Source: an uncultured Candidatus Peribacteria bacterium (lineage in GTDB: Bacteria; Patescibacteriota; Gracilibacteria; UBA1369; GWF2-33-10). Taken from it: a stretch of 64,000 nucleotides of DNA. The DNA lies in contig CAZEDK010000001.1 in the NCBI GenBank assembly GCA_964511025.1, positions 24,191 to 88,190 of the forward strand. Reading direction: 5' to 3'. Below are positions 5,439 to 18,166 of this stretch, one piece after another. The notes beneath the pieces are model-generated. The model saw only the letters and a program-made list of their open reading frames with translations, was not told where the DNA came from and did not search any database. The position numbers and the translations under genes were made by a program. The number at the start of each line of letters is the position of its first letter. Position 1 is the stretch's first letter.

Positions 5439-6884
5439 TTACAAACCCATTTCTCGTTTTATCGCATTAACATCTCTCACGAGCGAATAATCCTTTCTAA
5501 GTAATTGATCTATTTTGTCACAAGCGTGCATTACAGTCGTATGATTCTTCCCTCCAAATTCAGTTCCGATTTTCTCAAAAGAATAATTTAACTCCTTTCT
5601 AGCCAAATACATAGACAGTTGACGAGGTCTTAAAATTTCTCTTTTTCTCAAATCTCCTTTGATATCATTACCGGTAATCCTGTAATAACTCGACACAATA
5701 TCAATAACATCATAAACCGTTCTGGCAATACCTTTTTCCGGCACATAATCATAGTTGGAACCTTTTATTTCAACATGTGAATCGAATTTAAGAAGATATC
5801 TCCCAACCATTTTGACAGTAGGTGTTGTATTTTCCAATTTCGCTTTTGCTATCGCTTGCATCAATATTCCTTCAAGAGTTCTTACGTTATCCTGCACATT
5901 ATAAGCAATAAATTCGAGTACTTCCAAAGGAATAATTGCCTGCTGTTCAAGTGATTTCATCTGCAATATCGCAAGCCTGGTTTCATAATCCGGAGCACTT
6001 ACGTCAACCATCATACCCATTTCAAATCGACTCCGGAGCCTGTCTTCTATACCTTTGAGTTCTCTCGGTGATTTGTCGCTACTAAGTATTATTTGTTTGT
6101 GATTGTTATAAAGTTCATCAAAAGTATGAAAAAATTCTTCCTGTGTTCTTTCACGAGAGCCAAGAAATTGAATATCATCAATAATTAAACAATCAATATT
6201 TCTATACTTTTTCTTAATATCACCCATTTTGAAAGTTCGAATACCTTCAACTATTTCATTTACAAAATTCTCAGCAGTCGTATAAACAACAGAATAATGA
6301 GGAAAATTCTCTAAAATCGCATTTCCTGTCGCATGCAACAAATGCGTTTTACCGAGTCCAACTCCACCATATATAAACAAAGGATTGTAATTGCCGCCAG
6401 GCTTATGTGAAACAGCACTGCACGCAGCATGAGCCAAACGAGTCCCCTGCCCTACAACAAAACTTTTCAAAGAATATCTGCAATTGATTTTTTTACTTCT
6501 GATCCCATGAATATTAACTTCATCTTTGTTTGGTAATTTCCTTGGAGAAGGCTTCACATCCTCTTTTATTTTCATATCGCTTTTTTTGATACGAAAAACT
6601 TCCGTATTATCAGGATCAATAAAACTTTCATGCACTTCATATTCAACAGATTCAATAGCCGGATCATATTGAGATAAAACTTGGCATACAACATGATGAT
6701 ATCTGGATAAAATCCATTCTTGTGCATATATATTTGAAAGACCAATAACGCAAACACCACCTTGAATTTTAATAATCGCACTATTGTTAAACCAAGTTAC
6801 AAACATCACTCTATTAGCTACACCTTTTTCAATGTCAACAAGACAAGCTTTCCAAAAAGCCTTATTTGAAGCAAATTGATGCAT
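5439..6884 (-). CDS. dnaA: Chromosomal replication initiator protein DnaA
   Basis: Walker A GGVGLGKTHLLHA, Walker B CLIIDDIQFL, and the C-terminal DNA-binding signature GGKNHTTVMHACDKI. Confidence 0.97.
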   Translation of the reverse strand: MHQFASNKAFWKACLVDIEKGVANRVMFVTWFNNSAIIKIQGGVCVIGLSNIYAQEWILSRYHHVVCQVLSQYDPAIESVEYEVHESFIDPDNTEVFRIKKSDMKIKEDVKPSPRKLPNKDEVNIHGIRSKKINCRYSLKSFVVGQGTRLAHAACSAVSHKPGGNYNPLFIYGGVGLGKTHLLHATGNAILENFPHYSVVYTTAENFVNEIVEGIRTFKMGDIKKKYRNIDCLIIDDIQFLGSRERTQEEFFHTFDELYNNHKQIILSSDKSPRELKGIEDRLRSRFEMGMMVDVSAPDYETRLAILQMKSLEQQAIIPLEVLEFIAYNVQDNVRTLEGILMQAIAKAKLENTTPTVKMVGRYLLKFDSHVEIKGSNYDYVPEKGIARTVYDVIDIVSSYYRITGNDIKGDLRKREILRPRQLSMYLARKELNYSFEKIGTEFGGKNHTTVMHACDKIDQLLRKDYSLVRDVNAIKREMGL

Positions 6885-6962: not shown

Positions 6963-7328
6963 TCATCTAAAATCACCCATTCTATCCAAAATCGCCTCTA
7001 TCGCAGCAAATATTTGAGAATAATATTTTGACTCCAGCTTCCCAATTTTTCTGATAATTCTTCTTTTATCGGCAACTCTTATTTGATCAAACATTAGTTT
7101 TGACATTTCTTCCAAGCCATTTTCTTTATTTGCACTGACAACTATTTCAAATGGATAAATCTTATTAACTTTTTTTGAAGTGAATGGAGCCAATAATACG
7201 GTTTGTGAAAAATTTAACCCGGCATTTGTCTGCAATATCAAACACGGTCTTAAACCTGCCTGCTCAACACCGCAAACAGGATCTAAACTCACAAAACAAA
7301 TATCAAATTGTCTTATATTATTAAGCAT
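6963..7328 (-). CDS. mazF: MazF/PemK-family endoribonuclease toxin
   Basis: 121 aa. FDICFVSLDPVCGVEQAGLRPCLILQTN matches the MazF/PemK N-terminal signature. The start overlaps the upstream antitoxin stop by 8 nt. Confidence 0.85.
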   Translation of the reverse strand: MLNNIRQFDICFVSLDPVCGVEQAGLRPCLILQTNAGLNFSQTVLLAPFTSKKVNKIYPFEIVVSANKENGLEEMSKLMFDQIRVADKRRIIRKIGKLESKYYSQIFAAIEAILDRMGDFR

Positions 7329-7931: not shown

Positions 7932-8294
7932 ATGGAAATCAAAAAATATGATATCTGGCTCGCCGATCTGAGTCCAAAAAAAGGTTCAACACAATCAGGA
8001 GTTAGACCTTGTATAATTTTACAAAGCAATCTTTTTAATAAAAATTCCAGCACTGTAATTTTAGTGGCACTTAGCACAAAAAAAATAAAACTTTATTCAA
8101 ATGAATTTATTATCAACGCTTCTTTATCAAATGGACTCAAAGAAAATTCAAGATTTCTAGGCAATCAGATAATTACACTAGATAAAAATTATATTCTCAA
8201 AAAACTAGGTTCACTCGAAGAAAAGTATTACAGCAAAGTCTATGAAGCACTAAATCTCTCACTCGATTTAGAAAATATGTTTTTGGAGTATTAG
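7932..8294 (+). CDS. mazF: MazF/PemK-family endoribonuclease toxin (second copy, divergent from the first module)
   Basis: 120 aa. YDIWLADLSPKKGSTQSGVRPCIILQSN parallels the first toxin. The last base of its TAG stop (G at 8294) is the first base of the inserted MITE. Confidence 0.85.
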   Translation: MEIKKYDIWLADLSPKKGSTQSGVRPCIILQSNLFNKNSSTVILVALSTKKIKLYSNEFIINASLSNGLKENSRFLGNQIITLDKNYILKKLGSLEEKYYSKVYEALNLSLDLENMFLEY

Positions 8295-8453
8295 GGTCTT
8301 GGCAAAAAATAAAACACCTACCTTGCACTATCTTTAGCTTTATTTTCTTTGTTGCAAATCCAGTCATTTATCTCGATAAACTCCTGTATTTGAACAAAAG
8401 AATCTAAAACAAAATCTAGCACAATTTAGGTATCTTATTTTTTACCAAGACCC
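8294..8453. mobile_element. MITE-like element, family 1, copy 1 (160 bp, about 27-bp terminal inverted repeats, TTA direct duplication)
   Basis: Ends are GGGTCTTGGCAAAAAATAAAACACCTA … TAGGTATCTTATTTTTTACCAAGACCC. It is flanked by TTA (8291-8293) and TTA (8454-8456). It differs at only 4 of 160 positions from the reverse complement of 38688-38847. Confidence 0.78.
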
Positions 8454-8556
8454 TTAAGCTTTTTTGAAACTTTTCCGAATTTCAAATAGTGTTAAACTAT
8501 GATATAATTAATAGAAGAGTTCTTTTGAGTAACTACTCACCGCTATTTGCATTCTT

Positions 8557-8689
8557 GTTTGTCATTCCAGACCTGATCTGGAATCCAGTAGGGTAAACTT
8601 GTTTGTATTTCAAATCTAAACAATGTTTCAAGGCTATCGCAACATAATGCGCAATTCCTAGATCCCAGACTGGATCTGGGATGACAAAC
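8557..8689. mobile_element. MITE-like element, family 2, copy A (hairpin-terminated, 133 bp)
   Basis: Left end GTTTGTCATTCCAGACCTGATCTGGAATCC. Right end GATCCCAGACTGGATCTGGGATGACAAAC, the inverted counterpart. Each end is itself an 8-bp-stem hairpin. The internal blocks (CAGTAGGG.AAACT, TATTTCAA, AGGCTATCGC) are shared with 12918-13040. Confidence 0.65.
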
Positions 8690-8739
8690 AATAAAGTTAA
8701 TAAGTTACAAAAAGCAGTGAGCAGTTACCATAAAGTAGT

Positions 8740-8768
8740 TTGACAAAGAGCCAAACTAATGATATAAA
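8740..8768 (+). promoter_or_regulatory. Near-consensus sigma70-type promoter upstream of the 1363-aa ORF
   Basis: TTGACA (8740-8745), a 17-nt spacer ending in TG, then TATAAA (8763-8768), about 42 nt upstream of the ATG at 8810. Confidence 0.5.
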
Positions 8769-8809
8769 TTAAGCTCTAAAAATGAATTTAATAAATTTTT
8801 AACAATCAC

Positions 8810-11800
8810 ATGGGAGCAGCAAATACATCAACACCAGAAGGTAAAGAAAACCAATCATCTGTAGCACCGCTCAAAAGTTTAGACGATACTACAGACACAG
8901 AGGCTAATCCAACACCAGACAATAATGACGAGGGCGATTGTTTTATCGATTATGCGGATGAGTCTTCGCTTGAACCGATGCCGGCGAATGATACGCCTGC
9001 AGCAGAAACAAAAGTTGCCGAAGAAGTAAGAACGGAAGTAGCTGAAGTAGCGACAACAGCTATCGATATTCCAGCACTCAATCCATATCCTGAGATATTT
9101 ACATGGGAAGAGAAAGAAAACGCTAAATTTGCTGATTTACCAAATCATGAAAGACTCGCCATATCAAAATACCCTTATTTAATGGATCTTCTTCGTAATT
9201 TTGCTTTTTGCACATATACTTACAACCCAATAGAAAATATTGATTCTGTGAGTATTTCTTTTGGAAATGAAGAATTTCCACCAATGGATACATCTTCAAG
9301 TCTTGGGATGATGATGGCTAATGCAATAATACAAAAAATATATGAAACCATTGGCGTTGGCAGTGAGACAGTCACTAAAAGAACAGAAGATGAGAATGAA
9401 AAATTGCATTTAACTTGTAATGTACATACAAATTCTCAACAACCAAATATAGCAAAAATAACAGACCCAGCTAACAACAAGATAGGATTTGATGCCTTAT
9501 TATTAACAGTGGATCAATTCAGACAAAATAACAATCAAGGAACAACCATTACAGGAATATCTCTCACCTATGGCGAAGGAGCTATATTAGAGTTTCCAAT
9601 GGATAGACCTGATGAACCTCTGATGCTTGAGTGTATGCTTAGATTATTTTTCGATAAAACCGCGATACAAACATTATACAATGAAATAAAAGACAAAAAA
9701 CCTAAATATGAGCAGTGGCAAAAAAAAAGAAAAGGGACATATCCGCAAATTGCAATAATTTATCATCCAGCAGAATTAGATATCGATGAAAATAGCTTCG
9801 AACGTCTAAGCTCTCTACTAGAGCCTCAATTAGTCCAAAATGAAAGATGGAGTCAAGTTCAAGCAATTACTCTTGAAACCAATGGTGATGACCGGAAGAG
9901 TGCATTTGATTTGACTAACAATAACGAATTAAACACAGCAGAAACATTTTTAGAAAAAAATCCAGAAGCGATTTTGTCGGATTATACGATTAATGGAGAG
10001 ACAATATACGCAGGAGATTTATTAACGGAAGATGAGTTAGGGGAAACTCCAGCAGCATGGGAAGGAGCAGAAAAAATCGCAAGAGGTGAACAAGTTGAAC
10101 CGCTTGCATTGCTAGCTGCAGTTTCAGCAGATCACAGTGTTACCGCAAATCCACTTAACGCTAACCCGGAGTCAACAACAGGTGGGTCAAAAAAGACAAT
10201 TGTAATTAGACATAACCCTGAGAATGATGCAGATGGTAGAAGATTCCAATGGCAACCCGCAGACATTGGAAAAGTAATTAGAATAAAAAAGGCACCAACA
10301 CCAACTTTACAGAATCAAGCAGGTATTATAGGTGATGATATGTCTACATCTAGCCCAGCACGATTTGGCACTGAAAAGCCTCTGCAACCCAAAAATGAAG
10401 TTTTAGCTAGTTTGAATGAGGCTCACGATACTTCAAGGGCGATGAATGAAGAAGGCAAACAATTAGGACGACAAGCTTTTACAGCTTTATCAGGCACACC
10501 TGACTCAGTATCAGGATATTCTACAAATAATGATTCACCACTTAGAATAGCTCATGCACCTGCGCCATGGGAAAATGGAAAAGAGTTGATATACGGTAAA
10601 GTTAAGCCGCCACAATCTATTTTATATCGAACTATCGCACCGCCATGGGAACCCGATACTATAGCTGTTACAATACAGCATTCTTCAAAACGACAGCCAC
10701 CAAAACCTATAATATTACAAGGCGCTGCAATCAATCCAGTAGCATATCAAACATTGCCTGAGTCGAGCATAAAGAAAAAGAATACAATAGTAGATATTGC
10801 TAGCTCGGATTTTTTGCCACCACCTTCTGCATTTAGCCCCCCTGACAAACAGAAACAGGCGAATCTCCCCAGCAGTAGCGGTCAAAATGGTAGTTCAGTC
10901 TACATAGTTCCTATTGCCAAACCAGCAAAAGATTCAACATCTAATACAGCTCTTCAAGTACCAACAAACGGAGGTAGTTTGCCTCCTGCGTTAAAATCTT
11001 CAACTAGATCCCAAGTCACATCGCAAAGAGCAGAACAAAATGAAGCAAATCAACTATCAAGCAAGCTAGCGAAGCTTCTTGGTAGCCAATCTACCCCATT
11101 GAACCCAAAACAATCTGGCTCTAAGCCTTCTGCATCACAAAAGAAAGAAGCACCTACAGGAACAGCTCCTTCTGTCGCATCAACGACAACTCCAAAAAAT
11201 GCACCGCCAACAGCTTCACTGCCAACCATAAAACCAACAGATACTCCAGCAGAAAAACAATTAACTTTTAGAACAGACGACGCTAACTCTACAAGCACCA
11301 TATCCCCAGTCCCACGATCACAAGACACACACTTAGCAGAAAGAAGGCGCGGTTTGCCAAAATGGGGTTACGCTATAGCTGCGACAGTTCTTTTTGGTCT
11401 TGGCGCTTTGGGAATACATTTACGCTCATCTGATATTCAAGTTGCAAGTAATGATGCTCCAACACCAACTCCAATAATTGCAAAAGCTGATCCAGTACCG
11501 GTTGTCAGTCGAGACTCTTCGTCGCCTCAGAGTGACACAAGGGACAGTGCTTCAAGTGCTACAGCAGAAAAAACAGATAGTTCTGTAATAACAGCACCTG
11601 CTAGCACTGAAGGAGCACAAACTGTTACCATCAACACAACTCGCAGGAAAAAAGCAGATCAAGTTTACGCCAAGATGTTAAAAGCTGCAGAAGAGAGTAA
11701 CATGAAATTAAAACCATTTTTGGAACAGTTTTTATCACCAAAGGCGAATCAAGCTCTTGGCGCGCGAGGTATTTCATTATCAGACTTTAATTCGAAGATG

Positions 11801-12901
11801 ACAACAGCAGGCTTAGCAATACCAACTGGCTCATCTCCACTTGATAATGTAACATTTGGCAACAACAAAGAAGCTTCAGCACTTGCGATGACATGGTCAA
11901 TGAATTCAGTTTATAATGTGAGCTCATCATATCCAAATGATGGAAAAGTTCATAAATCAATGGATGATTTCACGCGTGCTACAAGCATTCAACTAGCTGA
12001 ATTAAATGGAATATTTGATGACAAACAAGAAGCAACAGCTAGCTTAGAAATTGATGCAGTTAGCCCCCTTGACACCAGCCCGCCCGCCTGTACCGATTCG
12101 GGCAGGACTACATTCTGGCAAGAAGGGGGGCAGGGGGGATTTGATCCACAAACCGTTGTAAATGCCGACAACAGCAGTCCTGATCTAAGTACAGATAATG
12201 GATTACATGCAAATAGTGATACAAAAGCAGATCACAAAGTAAATTCCGCCCAATCAGCCATTTATCTGCCACTAAATAACGAGAAAGGTAGTCCGGAACA
12301 AATTAATGTAGTAGCAAATGCTATAAAAAACCGACCAACTAATGGTGCTGTTGAATTTGCTTTGCAAGACGGTACAGTAGTTTGTTATGCACCTACAGGA
12401 GTATATTCTGTATTTAACAAAGATGGCACACCAAATAACAGTTCACCTTATCTAGCAAGGCTCAACAGCAAAAAACCTGAAAACGCAGCAAGGTCGTTAA
12501 GGTCTAATCGAGACAATCCACTTGCAGGAGTATCATTTGAAGGATCTGCACCAATAGGCTATGCAACAATTGCACAACGTCAATTTATTGACGGCATCAT
12601 AGCTCAAGAAGAACCTGTGATTCATACCTATACAGATACTGACGACGATGCTGAACCGACATCTTCTGAAGAACCTGCAAACAGTCTTCTAGCACAAACT
12701 ACGAACGATCCATTTTTCCAAGAACTGGATAACAAAATAGACAGCTTATTGGCATCGCTAGAAAGCCCCCTTGACAAAGGGGGTCAGGGGGATTTCCCCA
12801 ACAATGGTAGCCTAATTGGCAGTTCGGATGCTTATGTTGTGGCTACAGCGAAAAACGAAGGAGTAAGCGATGTCAATTTTGGAGAGATTTTTGATGCGTG
12901 A
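8810..12901 (+). CDS. Large orphan protein (1363 aa): low-complexity, Pro/Ser/Thr/Ala-rich, one central TM helix, no recognisable domain
   Basis: An uninterrupted 4.1-kb ORF in an AT-rich genome cannot be chance. It has its own strong promoter. The TM segment WGYAIAATVLFGLGALGIHL is encoded at about 11351-11422 and is preceded by RRRGLPK. The second half is visibly richer in G+C than the neighbouring genes. Confidence 0.8.
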   Translation: MGAANTSTPEGKENQSSVAPLKSLDDTTDTEANPTPDNNDEGDCFIDYADESSLEPMPANDTPAAETKVAEEVRTEVAEVATTAIDIPALNPYPEIFTWEEKENAKFADLPNHERLAISKYPYLMDLLRNFAFCTYTYNPIENIDSVSISFGNEEFPPMDTSSSLGMMMANAIIQKIYETIGVGSETVTKRTEDENEKLHLTCNVHTNSQQPNIAKITDPANNKIGFDALLLTVDQFRQNNNQGTTITGISLTYGEGAILEFPMDRPDEPLMLECMLRLFFDKTAIQTLYNEIKDKKPKYEQWQKKRKGTYPQIAIIYHPAELDIDENSFERLSSLLEPQLVQNERWSQVQAITLETNGDDRKSAFDLTNNNELNTAETFLEKNPEAILSDYTINGETIYAGDLLTEDELGETPAAWEGAEKIARGEQVEPLALLAAVSADHSVTANPLNANPESTTGGSKKTIVIRHNPENDADGRRFQWQPADIGKVIRIKKAPTPTLQNQAGIIGDDMSTSSPARFGTEKPLQPKNEVLASLNEAHDTSRAMNEEGKQLGRQAFTALSGTPDSVSGYSTNNDSPLRIAHAPAPWENGKELIYGKVKPPQSILYRTIAPPWEPDTIAVTIQHSSKRQPPKPIILQGAAINPVAYQTLPESSIKKKNTIVDIASSDFLPPPSAFSPPDKQKQANLPSSSGQNGSSVYIVPIAKPAKDSTSNTALQVPTNGGSLPPALKSSTRSQVTSQRAEQNEANQLSSKLAKLLGSQSTPLNPKQSGSKPSASQKKEAPTGTAPSVASTTTPKNAPPTASLPTIKPTDTPAEKQLTFRTDDANSTSTISPVPRSQDTHLAERRRGLPKWGYAIAATVLFGLGALGIHLRSSDIQVASNDAPTPTPIIAKADPVPVVSRDSSSPQSDTRDSASSATAEKTDSSVITAPASTEGAQTVTINTTRRKKADQVYAKMLKAAEESNMKLKPFLEQFLSPKANQALGARGISLSDFNSKMTTAGLAIPTGSSPLDNVTFGNNKEASALAMTWSMNSVYNVSSSYPNDGKVHKSMDDFTRATSIQLAELNGIFDDKQEATASLEIDAVSPLDTSPPACTDSGRTTFWQEGGQGGFDPQTVVNADNSSPDLSTDNGLHANSDTKADHKVNSAQSAIYLPLNNEKGSPEQINVVANAIKNRPTNGAVEFALQDGTVVCYAPTGVYSVFNKDGTPNNSSPYLARLNSKKPENAARSLRSNRDNPLAGVSFEGSAPIGYATIAQRQFIDGIIAQEEPVIHTYTDTDDDAEPTSSEEPANSLLAQTTNDPFFQELDNKIDSLLASLESPLDKGGQGDFPNNGSLIGSSDAYVVATAKNEGVSDVNFGEIFDA

Positions 12902-12917
12902 TTACCTTGTCATTCTA

Positions 12918-13040
12918 GTTTGTCATTCCTGCGCAGGCAGGAATCCAGTAGGGCAAACTATCTGTGTATTTCAAGTTACAAAGGCTATCGCGATGTAATT
13001 AGCAGTTCTGGATCCCAGATCGGAGTCTGGGATGACAAAT
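12918..13040. mobile_element. MITE-like element, family 2, copy B (123 bp), same orientation as copy A
   Basis: Ends are GTTTGTCATTCCTGCGCAGGCAGGAATCC … GATCCCAGATCGGAGTCTGGGATGACAAAT. It is flanked on both sides by ATTACCTTGTCATTC (12901-12915 and 13039-13053), which suggests insertion into a pre-existing solo hairpin unit. Confidence 0.65.
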
Positions 13041-13046
13041 TACCTT

Positions 13047-13071
13047 GTCATTCCTGCGAAGACAGGAATCC
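13047..13071 (+). repeat. Solo hairpin repeat unit (GTCATTCC-loop-GGAATCC), 15 nt from the GIY-YIG stop codon
   Basis: GTCATTCCTGCGAAGACAGGAATCC. It belongs to the same family as the left ends of the family-2 MITEs. Confidence 0.7.
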
Positions 13072-13086
13072 AATAGAGTCAACTGT

Positions 13087-13374
13087 CTAGAAATCTTCAT
13101 ACAAATCCTTCCAGCACGGATTCTCTTTTTCAATCAAATTTAACTTCCAAAGTCTTTTCCATGCTTTCATTTGTTTTTCTCTCTCAATAGCAAAATTGAT
13201 ATTTTCAAATTCTTCGTACCACACTAAATTTTTTACTTTGTATTTCTTTGTAAAGCCATCAATCAAACCTTCTTTGTGTTCATAAATTCTTCTTGATAAA
13301 TCATTTGTTACACCAATATACAAAGTTCCATTCTTTTTACTAGCTAAAATGTAGACATAGTATTTGTTAGACAT
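13087..13374 (-). CDS. Small GIY-YIG nuclease family protein (UPF0213/URI-domain type)
   Basis: 95 aa. YYVYILASKKNGTLYIGVTNDLSRRIYEHK carries the GIY…YIG motifs and the conserved R and E. ATG start at 13374. Confidence 0.9.
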   Translation of the reverse strand: MSNKYYVYILASKKNGTLYIGVTNDLSRRIYEHKEGLIDGFTKKYKVKNLVWYEEFENINFAIEREKQMKAWKRLWKLNLIEKENPCWKDLYEDF

Positions 13375-13613
13375 TTATTTAATTTATAATTCTGGATTCC
13401 AGCCTTTGCTGGAATGACATAGTCACGATCAACACCCCTCTCAGCAAGCGTATCCAGATATAGCTCTATCGCCTCTATTATATTATATTTTGCTTCTTCA
13501 AAAGTATCGCCTTCACTAATACAACCTGGCAAATCCGGCACTTCAGCTGTAAAACCGCCTTCTTCCTGAGCAGTAAAAATCACTTCAAATTGAAACTGTT
13601 TTTTCTTTTTCAT
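13344..13613 (-). CDS. HicB-like (UPF0150) antitoxin-family protein; orphan, with a C-terminal tail encoded by the hairpin repeat
   Basis: FEVIFTAQEEGGFTAEVPDLPGCISEGDTFEEAKYNIIEAIELYL is a typical HicB N-terminal domain. No HicA-like ORF is adjacent. The last about 25 residues (…VIPAKAGIQNYKLNK…) come from the repeat and overlap the GIY-YIG start by 31 nt. Confidence 0.7.
   Translation of the reverse strand: MKKKKQFQFEVIFTAQEEGGFTAEVPDLPGCISEGDTFEEAKYNIIEAIELYLDTLAERGVDRDYVIPAKAGIQNYKLNKCLTNTMSTF
13394..13418 (-). repeat. Solo hairpin repeat unit in inverted orientation, 19 nt upstream of the GIY-YIG start
   Basis: GGATTCCAGCCTTTGCTGGAATGAC is the reverse complement of GTCATTCCAGCAAAGGCTGGAATCC. 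It also encodes the VIPAKAGIQ tail of the HicB-like ORF. Confidence 0.7.
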
Positions 13614-16953: not shown

Positions 16954-17157
16954 CTCTCAGTTCTCAACTCTCAGTTCTCAACTCTCAGCTCTCAGCTCTC
17001 AGCTCTCAACTCTCAGTTCTCAGCTCTCAGTTCTCAGCTCTCAGTTCTCAACTCTCAGTTCTCAGCTCTCAGTTCTCAGCTCTCAGCTCTCTCAGTCCCA
17101 AAGGGACCCCCTTGGGGCTCTCAGCTCTCAGCTCTCAGTTCTCAACTCTCAGTTCTC
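16954..17157. repeat. Heptanucleotide tandem array (CTCAGYT/CTCAACT, about 29 units) split by a GC-rich palindrome
   Basis: Read directly: ctcagtt ctcaact ctcagtt ctcaact ctcagct ctcagct … The central sequence CCCAAAGGGACCCCCTTGGGG lies at about 17097-17117. The array produces the spurious SQLSALSSQ ORFs in the track. Confidence 0.9.
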
Positions 17158-18166
17158 TATAAAAACCCTGCGCTATTTTACCTGCATTTTCCAATAACTG
17201 CAAAGCAGATTGAAAAGTTTGCATACCTTCTTTTTGTCCAATTTGCATTAACGAATAAATTTGTTTTGTTTTACCTTCGGCAATGCAGTTTTTGATACCG
17301 CTGCTTGCCATCATCACTTCACACGCAAGTATTCTGCGACTGTTATCTTTCGAAGCTATCAAATTTTGCGAAACAACACCTGCCAAAGTTGAAGACAGTT
17401 GCGTTTTGACCTGAACCTGCTGTGCTTCAGGAAAAACATCAATGATCCTGTCAATAGTTTGAGGTGCATCAATTGTATGCAAAGTTGAGAAAACCAGATG
17501 ACCGGTTTCAGCAAGAGTCAAAGCCGCTGAAATTGTTTCATAGTCACGCATTTCACCAATCATGACAACATCAGGATCCTCCCTGAGAGAAGATCTTATA
17601 GCATCCAAAAATGAAGAAGTATGATGACCTACCTCTCTTTGTGTAATCATAGCTTTTTTGCTTGTATGAAGAAATTCAATTGGGTCTTCGACAGTTACTA
17701 TGTGACAGGCTCTGTTTTGATTAATTAGATCAATAAGAGAAGCCAAAGTAGTACTTTTACCATTACCTGTAGGACCTGTAACCAGAACTAAACCTTTATT
17801 TAGAGTTGCAAAAGTTTTAACTGAATCCGGTAAATTCAAAGTGTTAATGTCTGGTACAACAGTTGGTATCACTCGAAAAGCCATGCAGTATCCTAAATAA
17901 TCATTATAAATATTGACTCGAAACCTTCCAAGTCCAGGAAGCTCGTAAGCTATATCAAGATCATGTTTAATAGAAAAACTATCTTTTTTATCACCCAAAA
18001 TTTCATCAATAAAAGCTTTGACATCTTCCGATTTAAGAGCGTCAATATTTGATGGGCGATATAAACTGCCATTACTAAGTCTTATTGTTGGCACGTGAGC
18101 AGCTTTAAAATGCACATCAGAAGCTTTGTGCTCTACAACTTGTTTGAGAATTTCTTTAAAATCCAT
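17135..18166 (-). CDS. pilT: Type IV pilus retraction ATPase PilT
   Basis: 343 aa. Walker A GPTGNGKSTT, MIGEMRD, and FSTLHT (His box). The size and the absence of an N-terminal GspE domain fit PilT. Confidence 0.9.
   Translation of the reverse strand: MDFKEILKQVVEHKASDVHFKAAHVPTIRLSNGSLYRPSNIDALKSEDVKAFIDEILGDKKDSFSIKHDLDIAYELPGLGRFRVNIYNDYLGYCMAFRVIPTVVPDINTLNLPDSVKTFATLNKGLVLVTGPTGNGKSTTLASLIDLINQNRACHIVTVEDPIEFLHTSKKAMITQREVGHHTSSFLDAIRSSLREDPDVVMIGEMRDYETISAALTLAETGHLVFSTLHTIDAPQTIDRIIDVFPEAQQVQVKTQLSSTLAGVVSQNLIASKDNSRRILACEVMMASSGIKNCIAEGKTKQIYSLMQIGQKEGMQTFQSALQLLENAGKIAQGFYRELRVEN

Follow-up and report, generated by a model that had tools for sequence, protein, structure and literature searches.

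The segment between positions 8557 and 13418 of the stretch analysed here, 64,000 nucleotides from an uncultured Candidatus Peribacteria bacterium (GenBank assembly GCA_964511025.1, contig CAZEDK010000001.1, positions 24,191 to 88,190; hereafter the window), is very probably an Ssn/SRM locus in the low-GC chromosome of a member of the Patescibacteria (candidate phyla radiation, CPR), in which a 95-amino-acid (aa) Ssn nuclease is accompanied by six cognate hairpin motifs, the SRMs. Ssn proteins consist of one GIY-YIG domain, are about 94 aa long (CDD cd10448, GIY-YIG_unchar_3) and act as site-specific endonucleases on single-stranded DNA (ssDNA) only (Chenal et al., Nat Commun 2025, PMC11893778). 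They bind a hairpin, the NTS (CGTCATTCCCGCGMAVGCGGGAATCYRG) or more generally the SRM, and cut a few nucleotides upstream of it; enzymes of four species have been seen to cut ssDNA beside their own SRM, and among ssnA homologues an SRM lies nearby in 71% and on both sides in 42% (PMC11893778). The GTC before the palindrome is most important for cleavage and the C after the palindrome for binding, and the SsnA residues that have been mutated are Y6, Y17 and E64 (PMC11893778). A preliminary description of the window, made from the letters alone, had held that the hairpins and a small GIY-YIG gene belong together, which the published biochemistry bears out, homologous nucleases binding the hairpin as ssDNA and cutting beside it (PMC11893778). 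It had also spoken of a new kind of mobile system, and this does not stand, the association of Ssn with SRMs and the layout having been published in 2025; both the SRM bracketing of ssn genes and the likeness of NTS-ssnA-NTS to insertion sequences (IS) and to REP (repetitive extragenic palindrome)-RAYT pairs were already reported there (PMC11893778). The pairing of hairpin and nuclease is real, and already known, and what the window contributes is a representative, from the CPR/Patescibacteria, of a nuclease-hairpin system whose first description dates from that year.

The ssn gene of the window lies at 13087-13374 on the minus strand and encodes a single-domain GIY-YIG protein (Pfam GIY-YIG, 1e-17, residues 4-79, no further domain in the 95 aa) that is predicted, on Pfam and homology grounds, to be a hairpin-specific ssDNA endonuclease. 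Pairwise comparison with the 94-aa SsnA orthologue of N. gonorrhoeae gives 60% identity over 89 aa (E 2e-39), and tblastn against the gonococcal chromosome gives E 3e-28, so that homology to Neisseria SsnA is found at the published threshold of E < 1e-10. Residues Y8, Y19 and E66 of the window protein align with the gonococcal Y6, Y17 and E64, and because of this identity and the aligned Y/Y/E set the protein is by sequence an Ssn family member under the criterion of the original paper. The gonococcal locus (L009) was taken from NZ_CP119140.1 and NZ_CP119142.1, 2.17-Mb N. gonorrhoeae chromosomes filed as plasmids, and its 94-aa ssnA open reading frame (ORF) sits within an array of canonical NTS units. 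Homologues of the window protein run to thousands, the best being about 70-74% identical and coming from Patescibacteria, Ignavibacteriota, Omnitrophota, Nitrospirae, Deltaproteobacteria and others, and no close Ssn relatives were found in viral contigs. The nearest solved structures are UPF0213 proteins, at E 6e-4 only.

The hairpins were located with the pattern GTCATYCC-N(8-14)-GGRAT, which has exactly six matches in the 64-kb window against 0.06 expected from shuffles; their consensus is GTCATYCC-loop-GGRATCYAG and they span 8561-13418. A looser pattern run over the whole 64 kb finds no seventh unit, so the other 59 kb are empty and all six lie at most 4.9 kb from ssn; the preliminary description had counted at least six in a 5-kb segment, and the count is now exact. 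Folded as ssDNA, every unit gives a stem of 7-8 bp. Between units the stems carry compensatory changes (ATTCCAGA/TCTGGAAT, ATCCCAGA/TCTGGGAT, ATTCCTGC/GCAGGAAT and ATTCCAGC/GCTGGAAT), and as the changes come in pairs the loop-proximal co-variation first noticed between CCAG/CTGG and CCTG/CAGG stems is real. Four of the units, each recognised by pattern and folding, form two non-coding inverted pairs, elements A and B. The left arm of A is an SRM/NTS-like unit at 8561-8588 on the plus strand (GTCATTCCAGACCTGATCTGGAATCCAG) and its right arm a variant at 8658-8685 on the minus strand (GTCATCCCAGATCCAGTCTGGGATCTAG); B likewise has a left arm at 12922-12948 (plus strand, GTCATTCCTGCGCAGGCAGGAATCCAG) and a variant right arm at 13008-13036 (minus strand, GTCATCCCAGACTCCGATCTGGGATCCAG). 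The remaining two, recognised in the same way, both point toward ssn, one at 13047-13073 on the plus strand (GTCATTCCTGCGAAGACAGGAATCCAA), 13 nt from the ssn stop codon, and the other at 13392-13418 on the minus strand (GTCATTCCAGCAAAGGCTGGAATCCAG), 17 nt upstream of the ssn start. They bracket the gene in an SRM-ssn-SRM unit of 372 bp, as had been described, with spacers of 13 and 17 nt and not the 15 and 19 nt first given, which came from the use of shorter unit limits.

Two hairpin types, beginning GTCATTCC and GTCATCCC, are present in the window, and the outer sequence of the NTS, GTCATTCC...GGAATCCAG, is found in four of the six units. The positions known to be critical are retained throughout: the GTC 5' of the palindrome and the C 3' of it are kept in 6/6 units. 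A hairpin in a Cellvibrionaceae genome matches the left one of A over 34 nt with 97% identity, and a related hairpin family is present in Peregrinibacteria RIFOXYB2_FULL_33_20. Together with the nearest named homologues, this family points to a host that is probably one of the Patescibacteria and possibly Peregrinibacteria-like. A scan of genome contigs with a 17-mer made of the hairpin 3' end plus TAGRG gave mostly chance matches, with real SRMs at at least four loci; no Rfam family was found in the region.

Across other genomes the arrangement recurs. Some 15 homologue loci from several phyla were read, and in most of them hairpins bracket the GIY-YIG gene as they do in the window, which speaks for the association first proposed from the window. 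In Nomurabacteria (L001), Peregrinibacteria (L123), Parcubacteria (L130), Melioribacteraceae (L007 and L008), Rhizobium (L136) and Shinella (L141) inward-facing units bracket the ORF tightly, at distances of 2-60 nt, and a frameshifted second ssn copy in Taylorbacteria (L126-129) is still tightly bracketed by inward-facing units. In Azospirillum (L138) and the gonococcus the gene stands between SRM pairs, and at two Ignavibacteria loci the SRMs are confined to one side. Inverted SRM pairs that enclose a short spacer and no ORF are common at these loci, and homologues about 70% identical are spread over many phyla, each with a gene neighbourhood of its own.

Two observations weigh against assigning the locus to the Ssn/SRM system. 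The published degenerate SRM pattern, HGTCWYN(0-2)YYVSBRHN(0-5)WNVSBRGN(0-2)RNCYNB, fits the unit at 13392-13418 on the minus strand and no other; the remaining five carry A or T at one or two positions of the stem where the pattern disallows it, and with just 1/6 matching, the units were judged by direct comparison with the NTS. The second is that the orientation of the units around the gene is not universal, the nearest ones facing outward in N. gonorrhoeae and S. meliloti.

The activity of the window protein is predicted from its homology to the characterised Neisseria and Wolbachia enzymes. Ssn would bind the hairpin formed in ssDNA by the strand that reads GTCATTCC...GGAATCCAG and would cut the GTCAT... 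strand a few nucleotides 5' of the hairpin, and it should be inactive on duplex DNA, on RNA and on the complementary strand. As both bracketing SRMs read inward, the nicks would fall just outside the 372-bp cassette and on opposite strands, and likewise just outside A and B. The other four SRMs would constitute two non-coding inverted pairs flanking a large orphan gene, analogous to the NIMEs of Neisseria or to REP/BIME (bacterial interspersed mosaic element) structures. The candidate biological roles are the restriction or trimming of incoming SRM-bearing ssDNA, as in Neisseria transformation, and the selfish propagation of the cassette, and either or both may apply since the two are not exclusive.

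Element A (8557-8689, plus strand) consists of two inverted SRMs around a 69-nt core and lies in the 5' leader region of a 1363-aa ORF (8810-12901, plus strand), and element B (about 12916-13038, plus strand) likewise has two inverted SRMs, with a core of 59 nt that is related to the core of A. Measured from hairpin to hairpin they are 125 bp and 115 bp long. They stand in the same orientation just upstream and just downstream of the ORF, and their internal blocks have 80% column identity, the alignment of the two cores scoring above 500/500 shuffles, in keeping with the common blocks and orientation seen at first reading. Similarity adjacent to the SRMs reaches about 15 nt inward from each SRM (84% and 77% in two comparisons). 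The cores themselves were not found in about 130 fetched loci, a core 20-mer had 0 matches in JGI metagenome contigs, and in local alignment the cores match the ssn ORF or the cassette interior no better than shuffles do, which lends no support to their derivation from the ssn ORF. Because inverted SRM pairs without an ORF are so common at homologue loci, A and B can be placed in a general class analogous to the Neisseria NIMEs.

Exact 15-nt repeats (ATTACCTTGTCATTC) stand on either side of B. The first copy (12901-12915, plus strand) comprises 8 nt of flank and the first 7 nt of an SRM, and the last 7 nt of the second copy (13039-13053, plus strand) are the start of the next SRM. Deletion of 12916-13053 in silico leaves the stop codon of the ORF followed directly by an intact SRM, and B thus has the look of an insertion within the 5' portion of an older hairpin. 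The preliminary description had supposed such an insertion into another unit, and the exact duplication agrees with it; however the repeat may be part of a wider half-hairpin phenomenon, taken up below, rather than a classical target-site duplication. As miniature inverted-repeat transposable elements (MITEs), A and B qualify in part: their inverted ends are the motif that brackets ssn, as ends held in common with an autonomous element should be. A target-site duplication of fixed length is not the rule, B having an exact 15 nt, A none, and other loci either none or one of different length; nor were many dispersed copies seen, just two being found in the 64 kb.

What the locus does for its host, or for itself, can be read in more than one way. 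That it is a domesticated host system is a serious contender, if somewhat short of probable. Ssn would then restrict or trim SRM-bearing ssDNA in transformation, conjugation or repair, and the SRM pairs would modulate recombination at the orphan surface-type gene, as has been proposed for NTS-gene-NTS arrangements in Neisseria (PMC11893778). Deletion of ssnA in N. meningitidis raises transformation 5-fold, solely for NTS-carrying DNA, Neisseria NTS clusters adjoin membrane-protein genes, and a domesticated IS-like origin was suggested by the discoverers of Ssn (PMC11893778). In the window the SRM pairs flank a large, membrane-anchored and compositionally unusual orphan gene, and a gene for a type II/IV secretion-type ATPase is 4 kb away. 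However just one gene in the window is so flanked, and a host function alone leaves the flanking duplications and decayed cassettes unexplained. A host function would also be compatible with a selfish origin and does not exclude one.

That SRM-ssn-SRM is instead an autonomous mobile element, mobilised by its GIY-YIG nuclease and with A and B as MITE-like derivatives, seems rather unlikely, although Chenal et al. also raised the possibility of a mobile element for NTS-ssn-NTS (PMC11893778). Some new circumstantial signs suggest mobility, which is unproven. Besides the 15-nt duplication at B and the restoration of stop codon and SRM on its removal, direct repeats of 52 nt, identical at 49/52 positions, flank the Peregrinibacteria cassette L123, and in one Melioribacteraceae genome two identical ssn copies lie 6.4 kb apart with the identity ending 3 nt outside the 3' SRM. 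Decay is also seen, in the frameshifted and still bracketed ssn of L126-129, in a 17-codon ssn remnant beside an SRM (L078) and in an ORF-less 184-bp element (L024) with related inner sequence in the same Peregrinibacteria genome. Homologues about 70% identical in many phyla and varying neighbourhoods, and the Cellvibrionaceae match to the left hairpin of A, point the same way. So does a HicB-like antitoxin ORF (13344-13613, minus strand) without a hicA partner, in which read-through of the SRM and the ssn leader has taken the place of the native C-terminal ~27 aa, giving a tail ..DYVIPAKAGIQNYKL.. with ..VIPAKAGIQ.. from the SRM; intact HicB relatives, of about 85-90 aa, have the ending ..ERGIPLPEREPLKVLKMNITV.. 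and an overlapping hicA after them, and the break in the window ORF is ~12 nt away from the outer SRM end.

A difference in cassette presence is seen within one genus. In A. lipoferum 4B (plasmid AZO_p3) a block of ~530 nt, made up of an SRM pair, ssn and a further SRM pair, stands between sufB and sufC, and in three aligned Azospirillum replicons (L143-L145) it is missing, a short hairpin-free spacer taking its place between flanks that are ~90-97% identical. The match spans of eight further Azospirillum replicons fit the empty state. The presence/absence polymorphism is thus clear at sufB/sufC, where the cassette is present in one species only, and no empty site was found for the window genome, the 23-mer of the reconstructed B junction giving 0 matches in the metagenome scan.

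Several features sit badly with a transposable cassette. Element A, the window cassette and eight further units all lack a flanking duplication, as do most loci tested, and no general target-site duplication rule holds around SRM-bounded units; and the two duplications that do exist are of unequal length, 15 nt in one case and 52 nt in the other, which is not what a transposase would leave behind. Neither the core of A nor that of B is significantly similar to the cassette interior, and neither turned up in the fetched loci or the metagenome contigs searched. The Azospirillum junctions are not clean, and Ssn has been shown to cut only, strand transfer and ligation not being known for it. The same patterns could arise by recombination between dispersed hairpins. 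The early idea that the nuclease mobilises the hairpins accordingly gains indirect signs, in the duplications, the decay and the Azospirillum difference, and mobilisation itself is still conjecture. The further suggestion of a composite unit 8557-13418 carrying the orphan gene finds no support, no duplication or other repeat flanking the whole block and the orphan having no homologue with which to compare it.

Truncated 5' half-hairpins (GTCATTC.., with no 3' arm) occur 6-10 nt upstream of complete units in 7/65 cases, against a background of 3.6%. Sites of this kind are at 8540-8560 and 12908-12921 of the window, in the fetched loci L024, L123, L126, L131 and L009, at 1790-1870 of L137 and at 1900-1960 of L139. 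Tandem duplications of flank plus 5' half-hairpin are seen in Planktothrix, where a 23-nt piece of this composition is present in three tandem copies, and in Photobacterium. Such half-hairpins may be a footprint of hairpin cutting followed by repair or copying. One might go further and suppose that the cassettes are autonomous elements equipped with a bare GIY-YIG ssDNA nuclease in place of a transposase, that they insert at or into SRMs via ssDNA with variable-length duplications of the upstream flank and 5' half-hairpin, and that SRM pairs like A and B are their non-autonomous derivatives; we offer this tentatively and consider it distinctly unlikely.

The weakest alternative, that these are generic REP-like or terminator hairpins close to a GIY-YIG gene by coincidence, is in keeping with their being short extragenic palindromes between genes and is otherwise barely credible, since no unit is followed by a T-run or called terminator-like, all six are clustered less than 5 kb from ssn and the other 59 kb contain none, homologues in unrelated phyla are bracketed by this motif too, and a direct biochemical link has been published (PMC11893778).

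The region is chromosomal, lying between dnaA (5439-6884) and rseP, frr and pyrH, and the dnaA-rseP stretch looks like a small island of accessory genes. Metagenome run SRR4343435 contains an RRF gene identical to that of the window. The 1363-aa ORF between A and B encodes a Ser/Thr/Pro-rich orphan with one hydrophobic segment (about aa 855-878), and its local GC of up to 0.42 is the maximum in the window, which averages about 0.33. Neither Pfam nor NCBIfam offers a match, a search among 5.8 billion protein clusters finds the protein itself and no homologue, and it is unrelated to the large ORF beside ssn in L123. The secretion-family ATPase gene (T2SSE) at 17135-18166 on the minus strand may be part of a pilus or DNA-uptake machine that supplies Ssn with ssDNA. 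Next to dnaA are two PemK/MazF-type toxin genes, at 6963-7328 (minus strand) and 7932-8294 (plus strand), both of them preceded by a small ORF. Directly downstream of the second, and upstream of A, is an imperfect palindrome of 155 nt (8296-8450) that folds with -35.5 kcal/mol (z = -6.8 versus shuffles).

The settings of some homologues are also of interest in themselves. In Melioribacteraceae (GCA_041538185.1, 203023-215761, covering L007 and L008) the identical ssn cassettes are in direct orientation within long arrays of two alternating hairpin types, and between them lies an operon that encodes a molybdopterin oxidoreductase, an NrfD-like protein and a ferredoxin. The intact and the frameshifted ssn of Taylorbacteria (L126-L129, 2727-4285) flank a TraC-like gene, itself in a type IV secretion-like cluster (PrgI, TraC-like, TraG P-loop, T4SS pilin). 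On plasmid p1 of Planktothrix agardhii (L137) the ssn homologue lies between an MmeI-type restriction-modification gene and the DISARM gene drmA, in a defence island.

Two points concern the Ssn/SRM system at large. The survey behind the Ssn paper covered RefSeq reference genomes (PMC11893778), and since the published pattern misses the stem variants of the window, current censuses of Ssn and SRMs probably undercount. The 15-nt duplication, the decaying cassettes, the half-hairpins and the sufB/sufC case all bear on the mobility of NTS-ssn-NTS, and do not settle it.

Set beside known systems, the Ssn/SRM locus of the window is closest to that of Neisseria. The ~94-aa GIY-YIG nuclease, which has 60% identity to gonococcal SsnA and keeps the catalytic Y/Y/E, the outer hairpin sequence GTCATTCC..GGAATCCAG, the hairpin-bracketed gene and the further hairpin pairs around a neighbouring gene are all held in common. 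The window differs in that its host has a Patescibacteria (CPR) genome, in the A/T variants of its stems (CCAG/CTGG and CCTG/CAGG) that fall outside the published pattern, and in having six copies in 64 kb compared to hundreds per Neisseria genome; its activity is predicted. Neisseria intergenic mosaic elements (NIMEs) are repeat units between inverted dRS3 copies. A and B resemble these in having short non-coding cores between inverted hairpins of dRS3/NTS type, and the gonococcal ssnA locus has arrays of the same build; however the cores of A and B are window-specific, seen in two copies only, one of them with the 15-nt flanking duplication.

The pairing of REP/BIME with RAYT (the 'REPtron') is alike in that a small gene stands between inverted copies of an extragenic hairpin that is recognised as ssDNA, with non-coding hairpin pairs scattered nearby. 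The flanked gene of the window encodes a GIY-YIG domain only and not a Y1 HUH (IS200/IS605-like) transposase, so it is not a REPtron, and for its enzyme neither a covalent intermediate nor strand-transfer chemistry is known. The TnpA of IS200/IS605 elements also recognises subterminal ssDNA hairpins and cleaves a short distance away, but with another enzyme fold and at ends that are not inverted copies, both cuts falling on one strand, whereas the inverted hairpins of the window predict cuts on opposite strands. GIY-YIG homing endonucleases such as I-TevI share with Ssn the GIY-YIG domain and a tie to selfish DNA. The NCBIfam model for group I intron endonucleases scores 23 bits for the window protein against a cutoff of 56, and a 95-aa catalytic domain by itself in a chromosomal intergenic setting is not a homing endonuclease. 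Those enzymes have separate DNA-binding domains, cut duplex DNA and reside in introns or as free-standing phage genes, in contrast to Ssn, a bare catalytic domain specific for ssDNA.

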